From a virus (taxonomy: Duplodnaviria > Heunggongvirae > Uroviricota > Caudoviricetes), in IMG/VR virus record IMGVR_UViG_3300028886_003642: a stretch of 64,000 nucleotides of DNA. One strand, written 5' to 3'. How positions within the stretch are numbered: position 1 is the stretch's first letter; each line of letters begins with the position of its first letter. This document shows, in pieces, positions 3,661-23,637 of this stretch. The notes under the pieces were generated by a model that was given only the letters and a program-made list of their open reading frames with translations, did no database searches and had not been told where the DNA came from. The translations under genes and the position numbers were made by a program.

Positions 3661-4305
3661 TCATTTTACTCTCCTTATATATTCTGGATATACTTTACTA
3701 GCACTAACTTTTTTACCTGCCTCATCTACTAATACTTTCTTACCACTAGGAGTTTTTACTTCGTAATATTTAGGTAAAGGTTCTTTACCTTGTTCTCGCA
3801 TGAAGTCATCAAATATATCTGTGCCATTTTGTTGTCTATATAGATTAGACATAGCACACATTATATTTACGTTAAAATTTAATATATCACTATTATCATA
3901 GCCCCAAAGAACTTCTTCTATGTTATCTTCTCCGATTGCAGTAAACTCGTCCATGGACGTAAATTTTTCAACAGTACTAAAATAATCTATACACTCATAT
4001 TTCTTGCCATCATATACTTTATTAGGAATAAATGTAATTAAAAATTCTTTTGGAGTTAACCTAGCTAAAAGTTGTGTTGTTTCTGTACCTGCCTGAAATA
4101 TTAAATAACTATTATCTTCTAACTTACAAATACAATTAAAATCTTTAACTAAATATCTACAAAGACTCATATATTGATATCTATCATATGGGTCTAGATT
4201 TAATAAAATATTATCTATTATTGACTTATATTTCTCATGCCACCATTCAGTAGTTTTCTTATTACCATCAATTACTTTAAAATTAGTAGATGCATCCATC
4301 GTCAT
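3661..4305 (-). CDS. hypothetical protein (214 aa)
   Basis: Long minus-strand ORF. No recognisable motif. Confidence 0.5.
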   Translation of the reverse strand: MTMDASTNFKVIDGNKKTTEWWHEKYKSIIDNILLNLDPYDRYQYMSLCRYLVKDFNCICKLEDNSYLIFQAGTETTQLLARLTPKEFLITFIPNKVYDGKKYECIDYFSTVEKFTSMDEFTAIGEDNIEEVLWGYDNSDILNFNVNIMCAMSNLYRQQNGTDIFDDFMREQGKEPLPKYYEVKTPSGKKVLVDEAGKKVSASKVYPEYIRRVK

Positions 4306-10220: not shown

Positions 10221-10225
10221 TTTTT

Positions 10226-10253
10226 ACATAAAACAAAAAGCAAGACATCTTGC
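10226..10253 (-). promoter_or_regulatory. leader hairpin plus U-tract between the nrdD promoter and RBS (possible attenuator)
   Basis: GCAAGAcatcTTGC stem at 10240-10253, followed on the minus strand by TTTTTGTTTT, within the ~55-nt nrdD leader. Confidence 0.3.
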
Positions 10254-10274
10254 CTTGCATATTTGTTCTCTAAT

Positions 10275-10308
10275 TATATTATACCATAAATTTATTTATT
10301 TGTCAATC
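10275..10308 (-). promoter_or_regulatory. sigma70-type promoter for nrdDG (-35 TTGACA at 10301-10306, 17 bp, extended -10 TGGTATAAT at 10278-10286)
   Basis: Minus-strand reading gattgacaaataaataaatttaTGGTATAATataatt. Confidence 0.6.
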
Positions 10309-10518
10309 CTCATTTGGAGTTAATGACTTAACAGTTTCTTCGGCCTGATCATCCACTAAAGCATTTGCTCTTTCATAAAGACTAGCAATATAGTCATCTA
10401 CATCTTCATCTTTAAGATCTTCAACATTAGCATCATAGCCAACCTCAAATTTATAGAATTCATCCTTAATTTTCATAGTCCTAGAACTAACACAATGTAT
10501 AGAATTTACTTTTGGCAA
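10303..10518 (-). CDS. hypothetical acidic protein (71 aa), TTG start
   Basis: RBS GGAAGGTGGA lies 5 nt before TTG. Confidence 0.4.
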   Translation of the reverse strand: MPKVNSIHCVSSRTMKIKDEFYKFEVGYDANVEDLKDEDVDDYIASLYERANALVDDQAEETVKSLTPNED

Positions 10519-10689
10519 TTAATCCACCTTCCTATCCAAATATACAATTATTAAATTAAGTATAAATATTGATAATACAAAATCTATTATAGTACCAACA
10601 ACAGCACAAAAAAGATTACCGCTAAAATATGTTTCTACTAGCCAAAGAGTAGACGTTGTAATTGTTGCTACTACTAATGCTATTACTGA

Positions 10690-10960
10690 AAATATTGAAC
10701 ACTCCCACCACCTATAGAGGTGGGGGATTCCTGATTCATCGACTAATGCGCCAAAACCTTAGTTTCAGTGTCTTACATAATCTCCAAAGGCGTAGAGGTT
10801 ATTTCTAACCTCAGTTCCCGTATGACCTACGGTACTATTTTTCTTATGCTATATCTTTTGCTTTTGCTAAAATATTTATTGCCGCATTTCTATCTCTATC
10901 ATGATGCGCTCCACATACAGGACATACCCAATCTCGCACAAGTAAATTCTTTACTAGTGG
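10690..10960 (-). ncRNA. candidate TnpB-associated ωRNA (reRNA) region, estimated to span the tnpB 3' end and the right-end hairpin
   Basis: In IS200/605 the ωRNA overlaps the tnpB 3' end and extends past the RE. The flank has GC-enriched stems: gaggttatttctaacctc (10795-10812), cccgtatgacctacgg (10817-10832) and cccacc-acctatagag-gtggg (10704-10726). The 5' limit inside tnpB is a guess. Confidence 0.35.
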
Positions 10961-11962
10961 ATTTTTATATCCACATTCATAACAAGTTTGACTTGATGGG
11001 TAGAATGTAGGTATTTTTACTACTACACCGCCATGTTCTTTTGCTTTATATTCTAATTTAATAAAGAACTTACCCCATGCTACATCACTTATTGCTTTTG
11101 CTAACTTGTGATTCTTTAACATGCCTTTGATGTTTAACTTCTCAATAGCTATAAAAGCATTGTCTTCTGTTAAGTGATAAGTTAATTTATGCTGAAAATC
11201 ATCTCGTACATTCTTTATTTTTTCATGAATACGAGCAACTTTTATCCTTTGCTTTTCATATTGTGCTGAACCCTTTTTCTTACGAACTAATTTTCTTTGA
11301 GCACGAGCTAATTTCTTTGCAAATTTAGCAAGTATTTTTGGATTCTTTACCACATTACCATTAGTATCTGCATAAAAATCTTTTACTCCTACATCAATAC
11401 CTATTTCATGTCCACTATTAGAAAGCAATTCTGTTTCATATTTTACACAAATAGACACATAATATTTATTAGATGCTGTGCAAGTAACTGTTGCATTTAC
11501 AATTTTTCCTACCAAATCACGAGAAAGTTTGATTTTCACTTTCCCAATCTTTGGTAGTTGAATTGTATTACCTACTAATTTAATATTATTACTTACACAC
11601 TGACTTCTATATTTCTGACAATATGCATGTTTAGACTTAAACTTAGGATACTTAGATATCTTTTTAAAGAATCTATCGTATGCTACTTGTAAATCTCGAA
11701 GGGAATTTTGAAGTGCCGTACTATCAACTTCATTAAGCCAGCTATACTCATCATACTTTTTAAGGTCTGTAAGCATAGCATTTGTAGCACTATAATTAAC
11801 ACTTTTATGATTGAATTTCCATTCATCTCTACGAACCTGTAGAAAATGATTGTAAATAAACCGCTTACAACCAAGAGTTTTATTTATCAATATCCTTTGC
11901 TCTTTTGTAGGATAAATCCTATACTCCATGCCACGAGTAATTTCTACTATCAAAATTCTCAC
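10844..11962 (-). CDS. tnpB: TnpB (IS605 OrfB family RNA-guided endonuclease)
   Basis: N-terminal YRIYPTKEQ motif. RuvC-I GIDVGVKDF, RuvC-II IAIEKLNIKGM, and zinc finger CYECGYK...CPVCGAHHDRDRNAAINI containing RuvC-III. The true start is probably TTG/ATG a few codons inside the listed ORF, after RBS AGGAGGTG. Confidence 0.85.
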   Translation of the reverse strand: MRILIVEITRGMEYRIYPTKEQRILINKTLGCKRFIYNHFLQVRRDEWKFNHKSVNYSATNAMLTDLKKYDEYSWLNEVDSTALQNSLRDLQVAYDRFFKKISKYPKFKSKHAYCQKYRSQCVSNNIKLVGNTIQLPKIGKVKIKLSRDLVGKIVNATVTCTASNKYYVSICVKYETELLSNSGHEIGIDVGVKDFYADTNGNVVKNPKILAKFAKKLARAQRKLVRKKKGSAQYEKQRIKVARIHEKIKNVRDDFQHKLTYHLTEDNAFIAIEKLNIKGMLKNHKLAKAISDVAWGKFFIKLEYKAKEHGGVVVKIPTFYPSSQTCYECGYKNPLVKNLLVRDWVCPVCGAHHDRDRNAAINILAKAKDIA

Positions 11963-12586: not shown

Positions 12587-13069
12587 CTATACAATTTCAT
12601 ATTCATTATCTTTTAGCTGTTCCTCTACTGATTTTTCATCTGAACTATATTTAAGTTTATACACTGGATACTTATCTGGTGGCATGTATGGAAATTCTAC
12701 TGGAACTCTTGATTCTCTACAGGTAAATTTAACCCCATCTGGTTCAGCAAAAATTCTACCTTCTACATCATAACATTCTCCAGTTTCTTTATTTTTGAAT
12801 ACTGCTGAATATCTTTTATTTTGCCGTGTATTGCCATCAGGATCTAATATATCTGACCACTCATCCTCTTCTCCAGTTAATGGAGTTAAAGGTTTCCAAC
12901 TCCAAAGCCTATCTACAAGTGTAATTACAATAGAAGCTGACATATTAGTATGTCCTTGATCTACAAGTGTTTTTATAACCTCTAATACAGCTTTGTTCAT
13001 ATTATCGTCATAGAAATCAAAGTTATATCTTTTAAGTTCTTCTTCTGCCCAAGTTAACATATCTGACAT
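12587..13069 (-). CDS. hypothetical protein (160 aa)
   Basis: ORF in track. Confidence 0.45.
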   Translation of the reverse strand: MSDMLTWAEEELKRYNFDFYDDNMNKAVLEVIKTLVDQGHTNMSASIVITLVDRLWSWKPLTPLTGEEDEWSDILDPDGNTRQNKRYSAVFKNKETGECYDVEGRIFAEPDGVKFTCRESRVPVEFPYMPPDKYPVYKLKYSSDEKSVEEQLKDNEYEIV

Positions 13070-17400: not shown

Positions 17401-18423
17401 TTAAGATATTCCACTACTTATGCGGGTTCCTTTAGGAGTCTCTAATGCTTCCCTAAAAGACATTCCATTATGTAATCTGCGTCTAACCGTATGCCTACCA
17501 ATGTTATATAATTTACACCAATAAGATATAGGTTTCTTGACACCATCAAGCTCAAACATCTCTATACCATTTCTCTTTTTTGTCTTACGAGGTACTATTT
17601 CTAATGCTTCATATATATTCCAACCATCCCTAAGTCTTCTTGCCACTAAATCATATCTCTTATCATATCTTTCAGCTAAATCCCATACTAAGTCAATCTT
17701 ACCATCAAATTCTACACGTAAAGAAGTTCTTCTATTAAGTATTTGTTCATGACATGTTGCCCAACGACAGTTTTCCTTACAATAATTACCATTATAATCT
17801 ATACGGTCTAATGATGTATCATTTTCTCCATATTCATCGACATGTTCTTGATACTCATCATACATAGCATCACGAAATGCTATAAATGAATTATTCCATT
17901 CTTCACATACTTTTATTCCTCTTCCACCATAATTATGATATTCACAATTACTTTCATTATTACATCTATTTTTCATGTCTTGCCAAATTCTATAAAATCT
18001 TGTCCTAGACATATTATGAGTTATTTCTGACTCTGATACATACTGAGATTTCTTACAGCCGCACGATTTTGATATGCCATCTCTCAATGCCTGTGTAGTC
18101 AATTTCTTTCTTGTACCACAAGAACAAACTATATTCCACCAAGATGCCCTTTTCTCATATCCTGCATATGATTCAACATACCACTCACCAAAAGTCTGCC
18201 CTGTTAAATCTATAAATAAAGCTTCATGTAGTCTTTCTTTTCTCAAACATCCACATGACTGAGAAAATCCTTTCCTTAAACTATAACCATTAACTCTCAA
18301 ATGCTTTTCTGGATCACAATCACATACACAATCCCAATACCCACCACCAAGATAACTAAGTGCAGTCAATCTTCCAAATTTTTGTCCTGTAATATCTATA
18401 ACACTTTTATGCAAAAATATCAC
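17401..18423 (-). CDS. Cys-rich HNH-like endonuclease-family protein with duplicated N-terminal Cys module and C-terminal DNA-binding-like region
   Basis: Two copies of GQxFG...C.C.C...SCGC module. RFYRIWQDMKNRC...YGGRGIKVCEEW...LDRIDYNGNYCKENCRWAT is near-identical in pattern to 5783..6433. Confidence 0.5.
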   Translation of the reverse strand: MIFLHKSVIDITGQKFGRLTALSYLGGGYWDCVCDCDPEKHLRVNGYSLRKGFSQSCGCLRKERLHEALFIDLTGQTFGEWYVESYAGYEKRASWWNIVCSCGTRKKLTTQALRDGISKSCGCKKSQYVSESEITHNMSRTRFYRIWQDMKNRCNNESNCEYHNYGGRGIKVCEEWNNSFIAFRDAMYDEYQEHVDEYGENDTSLDRIDYNGNYCKENCRWATCHEQILNRRTSLRVEFDGKIDLVWDLAERYDKRYDLVARRLRDGWNIYEALEIVPRKTKKRNGIEMFELDGVKKPISYWCKLYNIGRHTVRRRLHNGMSFREALETPKGTRISSGIS

Positions 18424-19106
18424 ACCTTATTTTTAATATATTCTAACAACTTATTTATATACTCAACCAAGCTACTTCTTAGAAAGAATAGTCCCGCGAC
18501 CATAGATGTCATAGAAGCCCATTTACCTAAATCTTCCAATGAACCTAATGGGTCTAGTTTACTTCTTTCCTTTACATACCAATGTATAGATGCTGTTAGC
18601 TGTTGACCTAGTGTATATGTTAGGTTACTTGCTTGTTGTTGTACTACATCATGTACTCCATTTTTTAGTGCTGTGTTTATTACATCTTTTTGCGCATCTA
18701 TATTTTTCTCTAATTCTTTATACCACTGTTTTGCCTCATCTATATTTTTTGGCTCTACAAATGCATAAGAATCTACAATAGCTTTTGTAGTATCTGCTAT
18801 TACTGTATTTACAGTTTCTTTTACTATCTCTTTTGGTTTTTCTTTATTTTCTGTTGATAACATTACTACTTCTTTACTTATTATTTGATCTATATCTATT
18901 ATTTTTAATACAAAAGATTGTGTAGTAAAATCTTTCTTAGTTATAGTTACTGGTAATACTCCTACTTCTATTCCACTTATTGAAGTATTTCCTAAATTAT
19001 CAGTTGTTCTTTCTATTAAACCTTTACCTTCTAAATTAAATACTACTGAAGCTTCTTTAACTGGTTCTCCTGTTAAATCTTTTGTTTGTATTTTAATTTG
19101 TGCCAT
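18420..19106 (-). CDS. hypothetical protein with C-terminal hydrophobic segment (228 aa)
   Basis: ORF that starts immediately after the IscB-end hairpin. Confidence 0.45.
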   Translation of the reverse strand: MAQIKIQTKDLTGEPVKEASVVFNLEGKGLIERTTDNLGNTSISGIEVGVLPVTITKKDFTTQSFVLKIIDIDQIISKEVVMLSTENKEKPKEIVKETVNTVIADTTKAIVDSYAFVEPKNIDEAKQWYKELEKNIDAQKDVINTALKNGVHDVVQQQASNLTYTLGQQLTASIHWYVKERSKLDPLGSLEDLGKWASMTSMVAGLFFLRSSLVEYINKLLEYIKNKV

Positions 19107-20645
19107 CTAAATTTGTGGCGTTCTCCATCCTCTATAAGATAAAGGAGAACGCCACTTTCACCTCACTTTCTAAATAAGAATTATTATGTTGTAAAAATTT
19201 AATCTTTGAAGGTACTTTTTCAACTTTATTTCCAAATAAATCTTTTAATACAAAAGACCCTCTTTGCCTTAATCCTCCAATAAACCATAACTTATCATTA
19301 TACTCTACTGTATCATGCAAACAAAACCCCCTTACAAAATGTCCTGCTTGTGCTCTTTTACGAACACCACCTTTTGTTAGCACTTCTCTATGTAGTTTAC
19401 GATTATGTCTTCTTACTTGCTTTCTAAGAAAATAATAATCAAGCCGTTCTGCTTTAAGATTATTTGATATACAGTAAGCATCTGTAGTATGAGACTTTTC
19501 TATATTATTTTCTATACGCTTTACTTTTGTAATATAACCATAAGTTAAACTTACATTAACATAAATTTCTTTTAACTTATTATAAAAAGCCCATCTCATT
19601 ATTCCCATAAAAGTAGCGTCTTTAAATGACATACCTCTTTTTATATTTTTAGGTAAATCTATTAAACCTTTATGGTATTTATTGTGGCAAGACTCACATA
19701 ATGTAATTAAATTGTTTGGAGCATTACCCCCAGTTTTACGAGACTCAATATGGTGGACATTTAACACCTTATCTTTAGATTTTCCCTTACAGCATTGGCA
19801 TTTATGATCATCTCTAAACAATACATATTCTCTCACATTACCAAAACCATACTGATCACCTTCTTGATATTCCTTTCCGCTTATATTAGGATTTTTAATC
19901 TTTTGAATATCAAAACTAGCAACTTCCACTATAATTTTAGTTATAGGTAATATTTTATGTATATCAGCAACTAATTTTAAGTGTACATGAATTTTATTTT
20001 CTATAGAAGGTGCAAGCCAACCTTTAGGTTTTTCCCTGTTTAAAAATCTTGCAGATCTATAACGTGTTTTTCTATTTCTACGAGAACGTCTTAACTCCTT
20101 TCTTGTAGATAATAAATTTACTATACTTTGCTTACCATCACCAGAGCGCATAATAGTCTCTGACGCATACAATTCTTTCTTTTCAGTAGTTGCTGAAGCT
20201 CCAATATGTACAGAACCTGCATCTATACCTAATGTTATTGGTTGTTTATACCCAGCACTACCATATTTTAATTTAATTGTAAATGGTGTATACTTATATA
20301 TTTCTGCTCTACCACTTTTAAGCAATTTTCTTGCTTTTTGTGGGTTACAAGGCATAAGTGGTTTACCATTTTTGTTTAGTACATAAACTAACAATGAGTT
20401 TACCTCCTATTCCTGAGTTACACGACCCTTCGCCAATGTTATAATAGCTTGCTTAAATGTTAAGCCGTCCCCAGGTTGACTGTTCCTACCCATCAGAACT
20501 GTTTACAGAGCCTGTTCAGAGCTACAAACTAGGATCTATATTCATAGGTGAAATAACTAAAATAACGTAGTCAATTAAGACTTAGGCTAGTCAACTAGTG
20601 CTTGGTTCCAAGCTTCCACCTCTATAGGTGGTGGGTTATTGACCC
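19107..20645 (-). mobile_element. IscB-type IS200/605-superfamily element (iscB plus upstream ωRNA), no tnpA
   Basis: iscB is flanked by a 12-bp perfect hairpin GTGGCGTTCTCC...GGAGAACGCCAC (19115-19155, spanning the stop codon) and by an upstream hairpin ccacctctataggtgg (20617-20636). Exact ends were not determined. Confidence 0.5.
19132..20394 (-). CDS. iscB: IscB (OMEGA RNA-guided nuclease; Cas9-ancestor with PLMP, split RuvC and HNH domains)
   Basis: PLMP motif NGKPLMPCNP. RuvC-I ITLGIDAGSVHIGAS. Arg-rich bridge helix RRSRRNRKTRYRSARF. HNH DHKCQCCKG...NVHHIESRKTGGNAPNNLITLCESCHNKYH. RuvC-III-like HTTDAYCI. TTG start 7 nt after RBS GGAGGT. Confidence 0.85.
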   Translation of the reverse strand: MLVYVLNKNGKPLMPCNPQKARKLLKSGRAEIYKYTPFTIKLKYGSAGYKQPITLGIDAGSVHIGASATTEKKELYASETIMRSGDGKQSIVNLLSTRKELRRSRRNRKTRYRSARFLNREKPKGWLAPSIENKIHVHLKLVADIHKILPITKIIVEVASFDIQKIKNPNISGKEYQEGDQYGFGNVREYVLFRDDHKCQCCKGKSKDKVLNVHHIESRKTGGNAPNNLITLCESCHNKYHKGLIDLPKNIKRGMSFKDATFMGIMRWAFYNKLKEIYVNVSLTYGYITKVKRIENNIEKSHTTDAYCISNNLKAERLDYYFLRKQVRRHNRKLHREVLTKGGVRKRAQAGHFVRGFCLHDTVEYNDKLWFIGGLRQRGSFVLKDLFGNKVEKVPSKIKFLQHNNSYLESEVKVAFSFIL

Positions 20646-20650
20646 ACAAT
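20395..20650 (-). ncRNA. candidate IscB ωRNA
   Basis: A 250-nt GC-enriched, stem-rich non-coding region lies immediately upstream of iscB: gggtcaataaccc, ccacctctataggtgg, gcttggaaccaagc, ctagttgactag. In IscB systems the ωRNA is encoded 5' of the ORF and overlaps the RBS. Confidence 0.45.
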
Positions 20651-20998
20651 TACCATCCTTTCTATTATTGTATTTGCATCTTCTATTTCTATATGAATTA
20701 TCTGACCAAAAATATCAAATTCATATTTTCCTTCTCTTAACCCTGTGATAGTTATTATACTTCCTTCACCTTTTTTATATACTTTTCCTATATCTTCTAT
20801 AATAAATCCAGCCTCCACATTTTGCAGAGGCTTTCCTTCTTTATTTATTACACAAAATTTTACTGTAGCTCTATACTCACTATCTAAAAAATTAATAAGT
20901 TTATTACTTAATTTTTCTAAGTATTCATCACTATGTTTATCCATGAACCTTAATAGATACGGTATTATTGAAGCTACTAAATTTGCTATGAATTGCAA
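20636..20998 (-). CDS. hypothetical protein (120 aa)
   Basis: ORF in track. Confidence 0.4.
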   Translation of the reverse strand: MQFIANLVASIIPYLLRFMDKHSDEYLEKLSNKLINFLDSEYRATVKFCVINKEGKPLQNVEAGFIIEDIGKVYKKGEGSIITITGLREGKYEFDIFGQIIHIEIEDANTIIERMVIVGQ

Positions 20999-21011
20999 CT
21001 AACTCACCTCT

Positions 21012-21350
21012 CTAATCCTCCTTCTTTAATTCGTGTGGAATTTGTAATACTTTATTATATACAGAAGTTACTACCCCATTTCCACCTAAATTATGATATG
21101 CTATATACATATTACTTATATTTTCTAGTTCTTCTATTTGTATTTTTCCTATTCTACTAAAATGATTATAGGCTTGTAATATCCTATCTCTTAATACTGC
21201 TCTTATACCATTTTTAATAGCTTCTGATTCTTCTCGTTCTTTTTCTTTTTCTTCTTCCCTTTTCTTTAATTTAATTCCTACATATCCTACTATTATGGTC
21301 ATCAGTCCTTGTAGTATTAAAGTTAAACTCATTTTATCACCTCCTGCCAA
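21012..21350 (-). CDS. hypothetical membrane protein (112 aa, one N-terminal TM then charged KREEEKEKEREE stretch)
   Basis: MSLTLILQGLMTIIVGYVGI TM helix. Overlaps the upstream gene by 14 nt. Confidence 0.4.
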   Translation of the reverse strand: MAGGDKMSLTLILQGLMTIIVGYVGIKLKKREEEKEKEREESEAIKNGIRAVLRDRILQAYNHFSRIGKIQIEELENISNMYIAYHNLGGNGVVTSVYNKVLQIPHELKKED

Positions 21351-23637
21351 AATGTACGCATATTAATCTTAAGTTGTCTACATAGATGGTTTCTAATGCT
21401 TTTTCTACAACATCCTCATTGTTAGTAGCATCACCATCTTCTACTATTCTTTCTGCTTCTTTATTGGCTGGTGTTATTGAATATGTTACTCCATCATAAT
21501 CTATATAAAACTCTCCACCTAAAAGGTTTACTGAAGTCTTACTTAGCCTACTATCAGTTATTACCTTTGGTAGTGGTCTATTTTTATCTAATAGTTCTAT
21601 ATCTACTTCTCTATCATTCTTTGTTAAGTAGTATTCCCCATACATATAATACTTACCATCTACTTCTTTTATTATTAATATCTCAAAATCTAAGTCTACT
21701 GGCTTTCTTATAGGCTCTACTATTGGTCTATACTCCTCATACACTTTAGGTTCAGGTTTAGGTATAGGTTCTACTTTATTAAAGTTTATTGTTATAGGTA
21801 CTGAATCTCCTACTTTTCCTTTTTCTTCATGCGAACCTGTATATGTTATGTTTATTGTTGAGCGAGGATTATTTATTTCTTGTATAAGTCCTCTTACTGT
21901 ATTTTTAGCATCATCTACATCTGCCCAACTGTTGCCACTATTATCGTGCCAACCTATTGCAACATATGGTTGGTCATAATTAGAATTATTATTAGGTTCA
22001 TTAAACACATAACCAAATATTCCATTTGGATCTTTAGACCAAGCTGAATATGTATGTGTTATACCTTCTCCTTCTCCTGTTGATGTAAAGAATACTACAT
22101 CTTTAGATATTCCTGTATACCACTTAAATACTCTATTGTCTTTAATGTTCTTGCCTACTATATCAGTTCTTCCACCAAGGAAATATTCATAACTTTTACC
22201 TTTTAGCATGGAAGTTACTCTCCAATTTTCTAGCGAATCAGTTATTGTAGCTAAATATTTATCACCAACTGCATCTCCACCTTCAGTTCCTTCCTTTGCG
22301 GAATTAACTGCATTTGCCCATATATTTAGTATAGACTCTCTATTATCAGTATTATTATATGCAAATGTTGTTAGTATATGTTTAGCTAATTGTGTATATT
22401 GATCATCAGTTAAATTATCAAAATCCGTAGCTTCAGTTAAACCACTTAGCTTTACATTCTCATTAAAATATGCCTTTACTGCTTCTTGTTCATCAGTTGG
22501 TAATGGTCTATTATGATAGCCTTTATATTCATCTAAGCATCTATCTCTAATAATAGCATATTCTTCACTAGTTAGATTTTCAAAGTCTTTATATACTATA
22601 TTTTTTAGATAGTTTTCATAATAAAACTTAGCTAGACTTTTCATTGCAGGCTCATCTTTTACATCGGCCCCATAAGTGCTACCATTTTCATATACATTGT
22701 AAGAGTTTGCTGAGTCTATATTTGAATAGAAGGTTATATTTTCTGTATCTATATCTAAAGTGCTATTGTCTACGGCTACATTTCCATAAAAGTTAATATC
22801 TTTTGCGCTTATATTACCTTTTCCACTAGGATAATTAAAATAAGTACCAGTAGTTGGTGCATAGAATGTTAAATCTTTATCAGTAGATATATTAGCACCT
22901 ACACTAACCATGCCTTTATAGTCTTTATCATAATCCGCACCAAAAATAAGATTTCCTGTAGAAGTTATAGGAGAATTTATATTAGTATCTACCTTAGATA
23001 TTAAATTAGTATCTCCAGTAGATATAAAAGTACCATTTTCTAAATTTATATTTTCTCCTACAACTATAAAATTATTAACTTTTGTATCGCCTGTTATTAA
23101 CGCATCATTACTAGATTTTAGATAAATCTCACCATCTTCACCTAATTCTACTTTATCAGCCTTTATTATACCATTCATATTTACTATATTACCGTGTTCA
23201 TCAGGCTCAAAAGAAATTAATGGGTCATTTGACATACTAAAATTAGTCATTATATCATCTGAAATATTTTTTGTAGATGCTATAAATGCTCCAGTATCTA
23301 TTTGGCAACCTTCGCCAAAAAGAATACCATTAGGATTAATTAGTATAACCGTACCATCAGATTGTATTCTGCCAAAAATAGAGGATAGGTCATTACCTAC
23401 CACTCTATTTAAGGCTATTCCACCATTCTGATTAAATCTTACTAATTCATTTCTATCTACATTAAAAGTATTCCAGTCAATAGCTACTCTATTAGTATTT
23501 TGTGTTATTACCATTGAGTTACCATCTCTAGCTATATCTGCGCTACCTGACCTAATATTTTCACCAGTAGGTAGCGCAAAAGCAGTATTAAATGTTGCTA
23601 GTGATGCTAGAGATATTGCTAAAGCTGAAAATTTCAA
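21337..23637 (-). CDS. secreted TPS-domain (filamentous hemagglutinin N-terminal, TpsA-like) protein, 766 aa
   Basis: Signal peptide MKFSALAISLASLATFNTAFA. Then ...VITQNTNRVAIDWNTFNVDRNELVRFNQ...ALNRVVGNDLSSIFGRIQSDGTVILINPNGILFG, matching the haemagglutination-activity/TPS domain (NPNGI motif). TTG start after RBS GGAGGTG. Confidence 0.6.
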   Translation of the reverse strand: MKFSALAISLASLATFNTAFALPTGENIRSGSADIARDGNSMVITQNTNRVAIDWNTFNVDRNELVRFNQNGGIALNRVVGNDLSSIFGRIQSDGTVILINPNGILFGEGCQIDTGAFIASTKNISDDIMTNFSMSNDPLISFEPDEHGNIVNMNGIIKADKVELGEDGEIYLKSSNDALITGDTKVNNFIVVGENINLENGTFISTGDTNLISKVDTNINSPITSTGNLIFGADYDKDYKGMVSVGANISTDKDLTFYAPTTGTYFNYPSGKGNISAKDINFYGNVAVDNSTLDIDTENITFYSNIDSANSYNVYENGSTYGADVKDEPAMKSLAKFYYENYLKNIVYKDFENLTSEEYAIIRDRCLDEYKGYHNRPLPTDEQEAVKAYFNENVKLSGLTEATDFDNLTDDQYTQLAKHILTTFAYNNTDNRESILNIWANAVNSAKEGTEGGDAVGDKYLATITDSLENWRVTSMLKGKSYEYFLGGRTDIVGKNIKDNRVFKWYTGISKDVVFFTSTGEGEGITHTYSAWSKDPNGIFGYVFNEPNNNSNYDQPYVAIGWHDNSGNSWADVDDAKNTVRGLIQEINNPRSTINITYTGSHEEKGKVGDSVPITINFNKVEPIPKPEPKVYEEYRPIVEPIRKPVDLDFEILIIKEVDGKYYMYGEYYLTKNDREVDIELLDKNRPLPKVITDSRLSKTSVNLLGGEFYIDYDGVTYSITPANKEAERIVEDGDATNNEDVVEKALETIYVDNLRLICVHFGRR

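Follow-up and report, generated by a model that had tools for sequence, protein, structure and literature searches.

An IscB–ωRNA element in a ~199-kb phage genome, probably a selfish and RNA-guided mobile insertion

Does an RNA-guided nuclease gene in the genome of a tailed phage work for the phage, or does it work for its own spread? The question is raised by a locus in a viral DNA stretch of 64,000 nucleotides (nt) (IMG/VR record IMGVR_UViG_3300028886_003642; the whole stretch is referred to as the window), in which a gene for IscB, an RNA-guided nuclease ancestral to Cas9, is preceded by a region encoding a candidate ωRNA, the guide-bearing RNA of IscB. Over 21,263 nt, the window shares 99.98% identity with a section of a metagenomic contig of 199,041 nt (ena:ERZ27256887:k141_1382811). 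Much is known about IscB–ωRNA systems in bacteria and about their use in genome editing, and they have been noted on viral contigs, while their role in phage populations is not yet demonstrated. Virus-borne IscB/HEARO is already known (PMC9755519), as is IscB–ωRNA transposon biology; the contribution of the window is a clean natural case in which empty sites are reciprocal and the guide, adjacent motif and ends are all defined.

Taken together, the data make it likely that positions 19107-20643 of the window hold an intact, recently mobile, selfish and non-autonomous IscB–ωRNA element of the IS200/IS605 (ISC-type) insertion sequence (IS) group, carried by a ~199-kb phage, which would cut element-free alleles and be copied into them by recombination. 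Cutting and copying are activities that we expect of this element by analogy with its family.

The IscB protein and its ωRNA

The iscB gene (19132..20394, minus strand) encodes 420 amino acids (aa) and starts with a TTG codon at 20394-20392, with an AGGAGG motif at 20408-20403, eight bases ahead of this start. Comparison with Pfam revealed a match to RRXRR (PF14239; E 3.4e-65) over residues 3-179, covering profile positions 1-174 of 174, and an HNH match (E 1e-8) over residues 199-242. Among solved IscB chains, the sequence matched 11hr (E 2.7e-47) and OgeuIscB (7xht; E 2.1e-44), with the alignment to solved IscB ending around residue 335. When an AlphaFold2 (AF2) model of moderate confidence (pLDDT 65) was used as Foldseek query, the top matches were solely IscB–ωRNA–DNA complexes (8csz_D, E 4.6e-26), and the alignment to 8csz_D comprised 503 columns and spanned the whole chains.

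More specifically, a PLMP motif can be read as KPLMP at residues 11-15, and the RuvC residues D58, E157, H302 and D305 align with D60, E192, H339 and D342 of engineered OgeuIscB (enIscB), which are the published catalytic residues of OgeuIscB/enIscB (PMC13095665). RuvC-I is followed by an Arg-rich bridge helix at residues 95-120 (LSTRKELRRSRRNRKTRYRSARFLNR; R or K at 12 of 26 positions), and the AF2 model predicted a helix, at low confidence, at residues 91-107. The HNH domain is inserted between RuvC-II and RuvC-III, its catalytic pair H214/H215 aligns with the HH pair of OgeuIscB, and its zinc cysteines (C199, C202, C233 and C236) are present. Past a linker with a pLDDT below 50 (residues 329-354), residues 360-413 were modelled as a beta-rich C-terminal domain (pLDDT ~60-80), in a region that is ~30 residues shorter than that of OgeuIscB. 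Among 32 IscB homologues, D58, E157, D305, H214 and H215 were invariant and H302 nearly so (at least 90%). The ratio of nonsynonymous to synonymous substitution rates (dN/dS) between iscB and copies at other sites was 0.11-0.17, a substitution pattern (dN/dS about 0.11) indicating that the gene is under purifying selection. At the level of sequence, it is therefore confirmed that the product of 19132..20394 is an IscB with every RuvC and HNH catalytic residue present, and the full IscB architecture claimed in a preliminary description of the locus, made from its letters only, was borne out by the Pfam and solved-structure matches.

The same description had pointed to a structured ωRNA candidate in unusually GC-rich DNA directly upstream of the gene, and here too it proved correct. 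A covariance-model search identified the ωRNA scaffold at 20418..20643 (minus strand) as a match to the Rfam family HEARO (RF02033), the RNA now named IscB ωRNA (PMC10055086; PMC13565253). This match scored 125 bits against a gathering score of 83 (E 6.8e-27), covered model positions 1-211 of 211, ended 23 nt ahead of the iscB start codon, and was the sole Rfam match above threshold across the 64-kb window. The scaffold probably extends to about 20395, overlapping the ribosome-binding site of iscB. The G+C content of 20395-20643 is 0.414, compared with a window mean of 0.315 (standard deviation 0.034), which ranks it in the top 0.7% of all 249-nt segments. RNAalifold analysis of 16 copies from different loci further showed that pairing is preserved through one or more double changes in 26 of the 48 predicted ωRNA pairs.

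Five independent assemblies (L003, L004, L005, L007 and L008; related loci are referred to by such labels) stop inside the ωRNA gene, at element positions 124-142 (window ~20502-20520), and not at the element boundary. This suggests conflicting assembly paths, caused for example by several copies or variants of the element per sample.

Boundaries, insertion sites and mobility of the element

The ωRNA and iscB together make up a mobile element of 1,537 bp (19107..20643, minus strand), of the IS200/IS605 type and apparently non-autonomous, whose ends on the IscB-sense strand read 5'-GTCAATAACCC...CCACAAATTTAG-3'. Homology to a copy at another site in L006 (88.9% identity over 1,546 nt) begins and ends at exactly 19107 and 20643. 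Matching boundaries were found at three more subfamily sites, namely at both ends of L153, at the left end of L154 (exact) and at the right end of L008, this being the only usable end of a contig that begins inside the element; the right end of L154 (...CCACAGTTAAG) diverges across its last ~8 nt. Position 19107, where the preliminary description had let the locus begin, is in fact the exact left-end boundary. Searching IMG/VR for the left-end sequence as an exact pattern yielded no matches.

The left end (LE) carries a hairpin with a 12-bp stem (19115..19155, plus strand), located 8 nt inside the boundary. Its DNA fold (-14.4 kcal/mol) has a z-score of -6.6, with 0 of 200 shuffles equalling it, and the equivalent LE hairpin of L008 has a z-score of -6.7 with changed inner stem bases. 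The hairpin of the right end (RE; CCACC-TCTATA-GGTGG, 20616..20631, plus strand) ends 12 nt from the boundary, has a z-score of -4.3 for the enclosing 56-nt stretch (20595-20650) and shows compensatory changes in other copies; its opposite strand is the first stem-loop of the ωRNA. Both hairpin loops are built on TCTATA, and both hairpins lie on the plus strand of the window, which is the IS top strand. If the ends of the element were abutted in a circle, the junction would read ...AAATTTAG/GTCAATAAC....

It can be observed in addition that a Shine-Dalgarno-like GAGGTG lies 3 nt ahead of the LE hairpin, with the ATG of the downstream gene 8 nt past it (window 19107-19175, minus strand: ...GTGAGGTGAAA-hairpin-AAATTTAG-ATG). 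Speculatively, the hairpin, if formed in the mRNA, might bring GAGGTG near this ATG and restore downstream translation; the same stretch also codes for the C-terminus of IscB.

Directly next to the left end lies the probable transposon-adjacent motif (TAM; 19101..19106, minus strand), with the sequence ATGGCA in the IscB sense and GCCAT on the IS top strand; its ATG serves as start codon for the 228-aa gene that lies downstream (18420..19106). At the other end, the transposon-encoded end motif (TEM; 20639..20643, minus strand) reads GTCAA (TTGAC on the top strand), the first stretch of homology in most pairs of copies. Meers et al. (PMC10055086) describe an arrangement in which the right end delimits the ωRNA, the guide is encoded beyond the element and the TAM directly adjoins the left end; as read from its ends, the anatomy of the present element matches this IS200/IS605 layout. 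The GTCAA of the TEM takes the place of the TAM beside the guide in the occupied locus, which, by analogy with Meers et al., should spare the element's own copy.

Empty alleles of the site were found in L123 and L124, the flanks of which are ~90% identical to those of the window. Once 19107-20643 is removed from the window, both are colinear and gapless across the junction, through which they run as ...GTGG/ATGGCACAAATT..., and the empty junction of the window site is reconstructed as ...GGTAATTGTGG/ATGGCACAA.... The element thus inserted in the window without a target-site duplication. TAATG, once considered as a shared empty-site motif replaced by the element, was dropped, since the re-joined flanks put the insertion between ...GTGG and ATGG... 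and the motif is a coincidence of divergent relatives. The insertion rewrote the last codons of the upstream phage open reading frame (ORF; 20636..20998, minus strand; 120 aa), which ends VIVGQ* in place of VIVDGTN* with a stop codon that comes from the element (GTCAATAA). The joined window flanks predict the end VIVDGTN*, and P0121, a protein of 92% identity from the empty-site contig L123, ends exactly so. The downstream 228-aa gene, on the other side, keeps its ATG after the insertion.

The reciprocal arrangement is found with L006 (IscB 90% identical), where the element lies just upstream of a 190-aa gene; the matching site is empty in the window (29447/29444), and the insertion site of the window is uninterrupted in L006. 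Elements of at least 86% identity occupy at least five different sites (window, L006, L008, L153 and L154), all on phage-like contigs, and the exact IscB and relatives of 85-92% identity were likewise found on phage-like contigs. Five contigs from separate samples are 100% identical over the part of the element that they hold, two of them holding the whole element, and all occupied copies of the window site are essentially identical. One 148.7-kb viral contig (IMGVR_UViG_3300024999_000040; loci L033 and L037) carries two IscB–ωRNA copies at different positions, with 83% mutual identity.

ATGG stands next to the left end of the element at all five subfamily sites, and across the wider family ATG[A/G] does so at 34 of 36, ATGAA being the commonest form (16/36); the chance of such a 4-mer at a fixed position is ~1%. 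On the ωRNA side, 19 pairs of related copies at different sites (78-99.9% identical) showed homology that usually sets in at the first bases of the scaffold (GTCAA... or CTCAC...) or only a few nt from them, and past this boundary the flanks of copies at different sites are unrelated, which is what a guide derived from the flank requires. Insertions were located exactly ahead of an ORF of at least 50 codons in 20 of 36 cases, compared with 23% of random ATGs on the same strand (p = 3e-5), as the ATG within the TAM places insertions at gene starts. Moreover, iscB is co-oriented with its neighbouring genes in 8 of 8 contexts examined, so that read-through transcription could supply the guide.

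Some relatives have eroded ends around an intact iscB. In L006, the left-end hairpin no longer folds (z -0.7; L006:11225-11302), and in L009/L010 the right end has ATTAA in place of GTCAA and homology is lost ~60 nt before the left end (L009:2459-2470, 3940-3966). Such copies may be immobilised.

Guide, target and competing explanations

The predicted guide consists of the 16 nt immediately outside the right end (20644..20659, minus strand; AGGATGGTAATTGTGG), which belong to the 3' end of the upstream 120-aa ORF; this length is our assumption, borrowed from OgeuIscB. For OgeuIscB-type guides, nucleotides +5 to +16 have been described (PMC13095665). With the guide lying 5' of 20643, the functional unit runs to about 20659, and the transcript 5' end that the preliminary description had placed at 20640-20650 should instead fall upstream of 20643, around position 20659 or beyond. 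A weak sigma-70-like match in a consensus scan (20664..20691, minus strand; 9 of 12 consensus positions) could start an ωRNA transcript ~14 nt ahead of the scaffold. It counts as no evidence of function, as such matches are common in AT-rich DNA and the region as a whole contains 22 of them against 10.5 expected.

In the empty alleles of L123 and L124, the protospacers (AGAATGGTGATCGTGG and AGGATGGTAATCGCAG, respectively) each have 3 mismatches to the guide and carry the motif ATGGCA, and the empty allele of L006 has 4 mismatches in 16 and the non-consensus motif ATGT. Where the element is present, GTCAAT and not ATGG comes after the guide sequence. These sequences suggest that, in keeping with the canonical model, the guide addresses its own locus in the state without the element. 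Other guide targets in the window were only 3-mismatch matches, at about chance level.

The behaviour that we consider likely for the element would then proceed as follows. Transcribed with, or just downstream of, the co-oriented upstream gene, the ωRNA would hold ~16 nt of flank (AGGATGGTAATTGTGG) at its 5' end as guide. The IscB–ωRNA complex would recognise these 16 nt together with ATGG(CA), a combination that is present only where the element is absent, leaving the occupied locus with its GTCAAT spared from its own nuclease. Judging from the family, IscB would cut the element-free allele, be it a donor joint resulting from excision or a related phage's genome during co-infection, and recombination with an occupied genome would copy the element in, much like a homing endonuclease gene. 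Moves to new sites were precise, without target duplication and always beside ATGG, and would fit single-strand 'peel-and-paste' by a Y1 TnpA that the host or another element would provide in trans. Placement ahead of start codons would keep the cost low in a tightly packed phage genome.

A number of points weigh against this account. The steps of transcription, recognition and cleavage are modelled on homology with GstIscB and OgeuIscB, and none of the empty alleles found (L123, L124 and L006) holds a perfectly matching target, 3-4 of 16 positions being mismatched. The single-sequence folding energy of the ωRNA was not unusual when compared with shuffles (z -0.46), so that the evidence for its structure comes from the covariance-model match and the covariation, stability alone giving no support. 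Several subfamilies carry AAAGG 6-8 nt ahead of the downstream ATG, but the left end of the window subfamily has no Shine-Dalgarno sequence at normal spacing before it, and the idea of a harmless insertion is only partly supported. A transposase also failed to appear: a Pfam scan of the window's twenty minus-strand ORFs of 100-200 aa showed no Y1 TnpA (PF01797), tblastn against the window with a Y1 TnpA as seed was negative, and no TnpA was found within 6-10 kb of the element in related Pfam-annotated contigs.

The TnpA searches covered 64 kb of the ~199-kb phage genome, together with the fetched loci. Among ~150 fetched loci, a single one (L047, IscB 64% identical) has an adjacent Y1_Tnp ORF (L047:1701-2066, OGVK01001323.1), which overlaps the end of iscB in the same orientation and, as its match runs out at profile position 111 of 121, is probably truncated; an HUH-motif filter over all fetched loci and tblastn with the L047 TnpA gave no further matches. 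Since no TnpA was found, we consider the element non-autonomous, its five insertion sites needing a transposase in trans. This would be the usual situation, as tnpA occurs near ~1.5% of iscB genes and ~98% of iscB loci are non-autonomous (PMC10055086).

Could the element instead be an inactive relic, a decaying IscB insertion that neither cuts nor moves and is merely carried by the phage? The missing TnpA and the decayed ends of relatives (L006 with its hairpin z-score of -0.7; L009/L010) would agree with this, but the window copy retains all catalytic residues, a dN/dS of ~0.11, a full-length 125-bit ωRNA and both end hairpins, and the five insertion sites among close copies argue for recent mobility, so that decay appears very improbable. 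Even further from what the data allow is a free-standing HNH homing endonuclease that is guided by its own protein and for which the upstream RNA serves only as a cis-regulatory leader. This reading takes its appeal from the label 'HNH endonuclease' that PHROGs families 119 and 2214 and GenBank phage records give to IscB-like genes. However, the match to IscB is whole-length and includes the PLMP motif, the split RuvC and the bridge helix, and the RNA belongs to the HEARO/ωRNA family that has been solved in complex with IscB; we regard such a protein-guided enzyme as scarcely credible. The locus rather shows that genes of PHROG 119 and 2214 with that name can be RNA-guided nucleases.

The preliminary description had left open whether this was a selfish IS or a co-opted system, for example one turned against competing mobile elements. 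If co-opted, the IscB–ωRNA pair would be a weapon by which the phage destroys or excludes co-infecting relatives (marker exclusion, superinfection competition) rather than a means of spreading the element. The guide does target a site in ~90%-identical relatives without the element, iscB is under purifying selection, and a second selfish HNH gene (17401-18423) lies nearby, as in phage homing-endonuclease islands (PMC13565253). Against this, the guide is the native flank, the default of any IS200/IS605 element, with no sign of retargeting, of a guide array or of a fixed position, and the occupation of five different sites is the behaviour of a transposon and not of a fixed phage gene. Co-option therefore seems unlikely to us, and of the two options the selfish IS is favoured by the discrete insertion, the empty alleles and the guide taken from the element's own flank. 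Exclusion and homing would nevertheless be compatible, and inseparable by sequence alone; cutting element-free relatives would also amount to competition between phages.

For the selfish element favoured here, a bolder possibility, which we hold open as a reasonable prospect but short of probable, is that it acts as a natural RNA-guided gene drive, whereby co-infecting relatives that lack the insertion would be cut where the 120-aa and 228-aa genes meet and the element would be copied in by recombination without TnpA. Such 'non-restorative transposon homing' into co-infecting phages is described as theoretical in a 2026 review (PMC13565253), and our searches of the accessible literature, made for IscB encoded by phages and for homing with an RNA guide during phage co-infection, yielded nothing past that remark. 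The combination of an intact element, empty alleles in ~90%-identical phages and a sister phage with another occupied site makes RNA-guided homing directly testable, and the locus also yields a compact 420-aa IscB with a probable ATGG-type TAM. If the idea is true, ATGR-targeted elements that settle at gene starts would be programmable counterparts of free-standing homing endonuclease genes, shaping the mosaicism of large gut and rumen phages.

Genomic neighbourhood and comparison with known systems

All window ORFs of at least 100 aa that are not antisense within a larger ORF lie on the minus strand, and the genes around the element gave matches to phage families (SNF2 helicase, a free-standing HNH endonuclease, proteins of the tail fibre, tail and tail assembly, DnaB, the anaerobic ribonucleotide reductase NrdD with its activase, dUTPase and Tad3). 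Megablast of 18400-21400 against 50,697 GenBank phage records gave no match, and a protein search of GenBank phage records found only distant IscB-like genes of at most 52% identity, in 34 records. The nearest IscB copies in bacterial genomes, at most 66% identical, come from gut and rumen metagenome-assembled genomes of Bacillota, which gives a clue to the host range.

Just downstream of the 228-aa gene lies a free-standing HNH endonuclease gene (17401-18423, minus strand; PHROG 374), which is itself an insertion polymorphism: L124 and L006 lack it and jump from window position ~18441 to ~17416. With this gene on one side and the IscB element on the other, the 228-aa gene is flanked by two selfish nuclease genes. 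A second OMEGA-type gene of the phage encodes a 372-aa TnpB (10844-11962, minus strand; OrfB_IS605, with Cas12f1-like TNB and HTH domains). The ~620 nt between tnpB and nrdD (10221-10843) hold no ORF of at least 100 aa, and an Rfam scan of this stretch for an ωRNA matched no family. L006 carries TnpB genes at other positions, and TnpB elements seem to move among related phages as well.

The same accessory region contains an anti-defence gene for Tad3, the type I Thoeris inhibitor (12587-13069, minus strand; PF25185, E 2.9e-30). At window ~14726, the near-identical L002 and L003 have ~300 extra bases with a 96-aa ORF and a faint zinc-ribbon match, a small insertion polymorphism. At the edge of the tail-fibre module, a 766-aa protein (21337-23637, minus strand) has an N-terminal two-partner-secretion (TPS, filamentous-haemagglutinin-like) domain (PF05860, E 7e-25), which is unusual for a phage structural region.

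The closest parallel to the window element is GstIscB of ISGst from Geobacillus stearothermophilus (PMC10055086). Both have a guide located beyond the element and a TAM adjoining the left end, both insert without a scar, and in both the TEM resembles the TAM yet differs from it, which should spare the occupied locus; the catalytic Asp (D58), the HNH His-His pair and the rarity of an adjacent TnpA are shared as well. GstIscB has the TAM TTCAT, which corresponds to ATGAA when read in the IscB sense (PMC10055086), whereas the motif of the window subfamily is ATGG (NCCAT on the top strand), ATGGC in the window. The window element furthermore resides in a virulent-looking ~199-kb phage and not in a bacterial chromosome, no cognate TnpA was identified in the DNA searched, its likely target would be a co-infecting phage genome and not a sister chromosome, and the system is known from sequence alone.

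OgeuIscB (7xht, 7utn and 8csz) agrees with the window IscB in domain order, in catalytic residues and in having an ωRNA of the same Rfam family, and its TAM, reported as NWRRNA (PMC12660989), fits the ATGGCA of the window. The window protein, on the other hand, is smaller (420 versus 496 aa), with ~35 residues missing between the bridge helix and RuvC-II and a C-terminal TAM-interacting region that is ~30 residues shorter, and identity in the structural alignment is ~25%. Goltsman et al. (2022), in the accessible part of their paper, report that more than 16% of HEARO/IscB contigs are viral or prophage-derived, that few have a TnpA and that 65% have an RF02033 match in the 5' untranslated region (PMC9755519). 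The window element appears to be one such viral HEARO nuclease, and that part of their text describes no phage insertion-site polymorphism, empty sites or guide-target logic.

Finally, the element resembles the free-standing homing endonuclease genes of T-even phages (SegF, SegB and Mob; PMC13565253) in being a nuclease gene that sits between conserved genes, in the same orientation, and is present in some relatives and absent from others. The resemblance would, by analogy, extend to the predicted cutting of the allele without the gene and to its copying by recombination during co-infection. In contrast to these enzymes, specificity in the window element would come from a 16-nt RNA guide plus the TAM and not from protein-DNA contacts, and self would be told from non-self by the presence of the insertion and not by substitutions in a nearby gene. 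The window element also has transposon ends and moves to unrelated sites, unlike the T-even genes.

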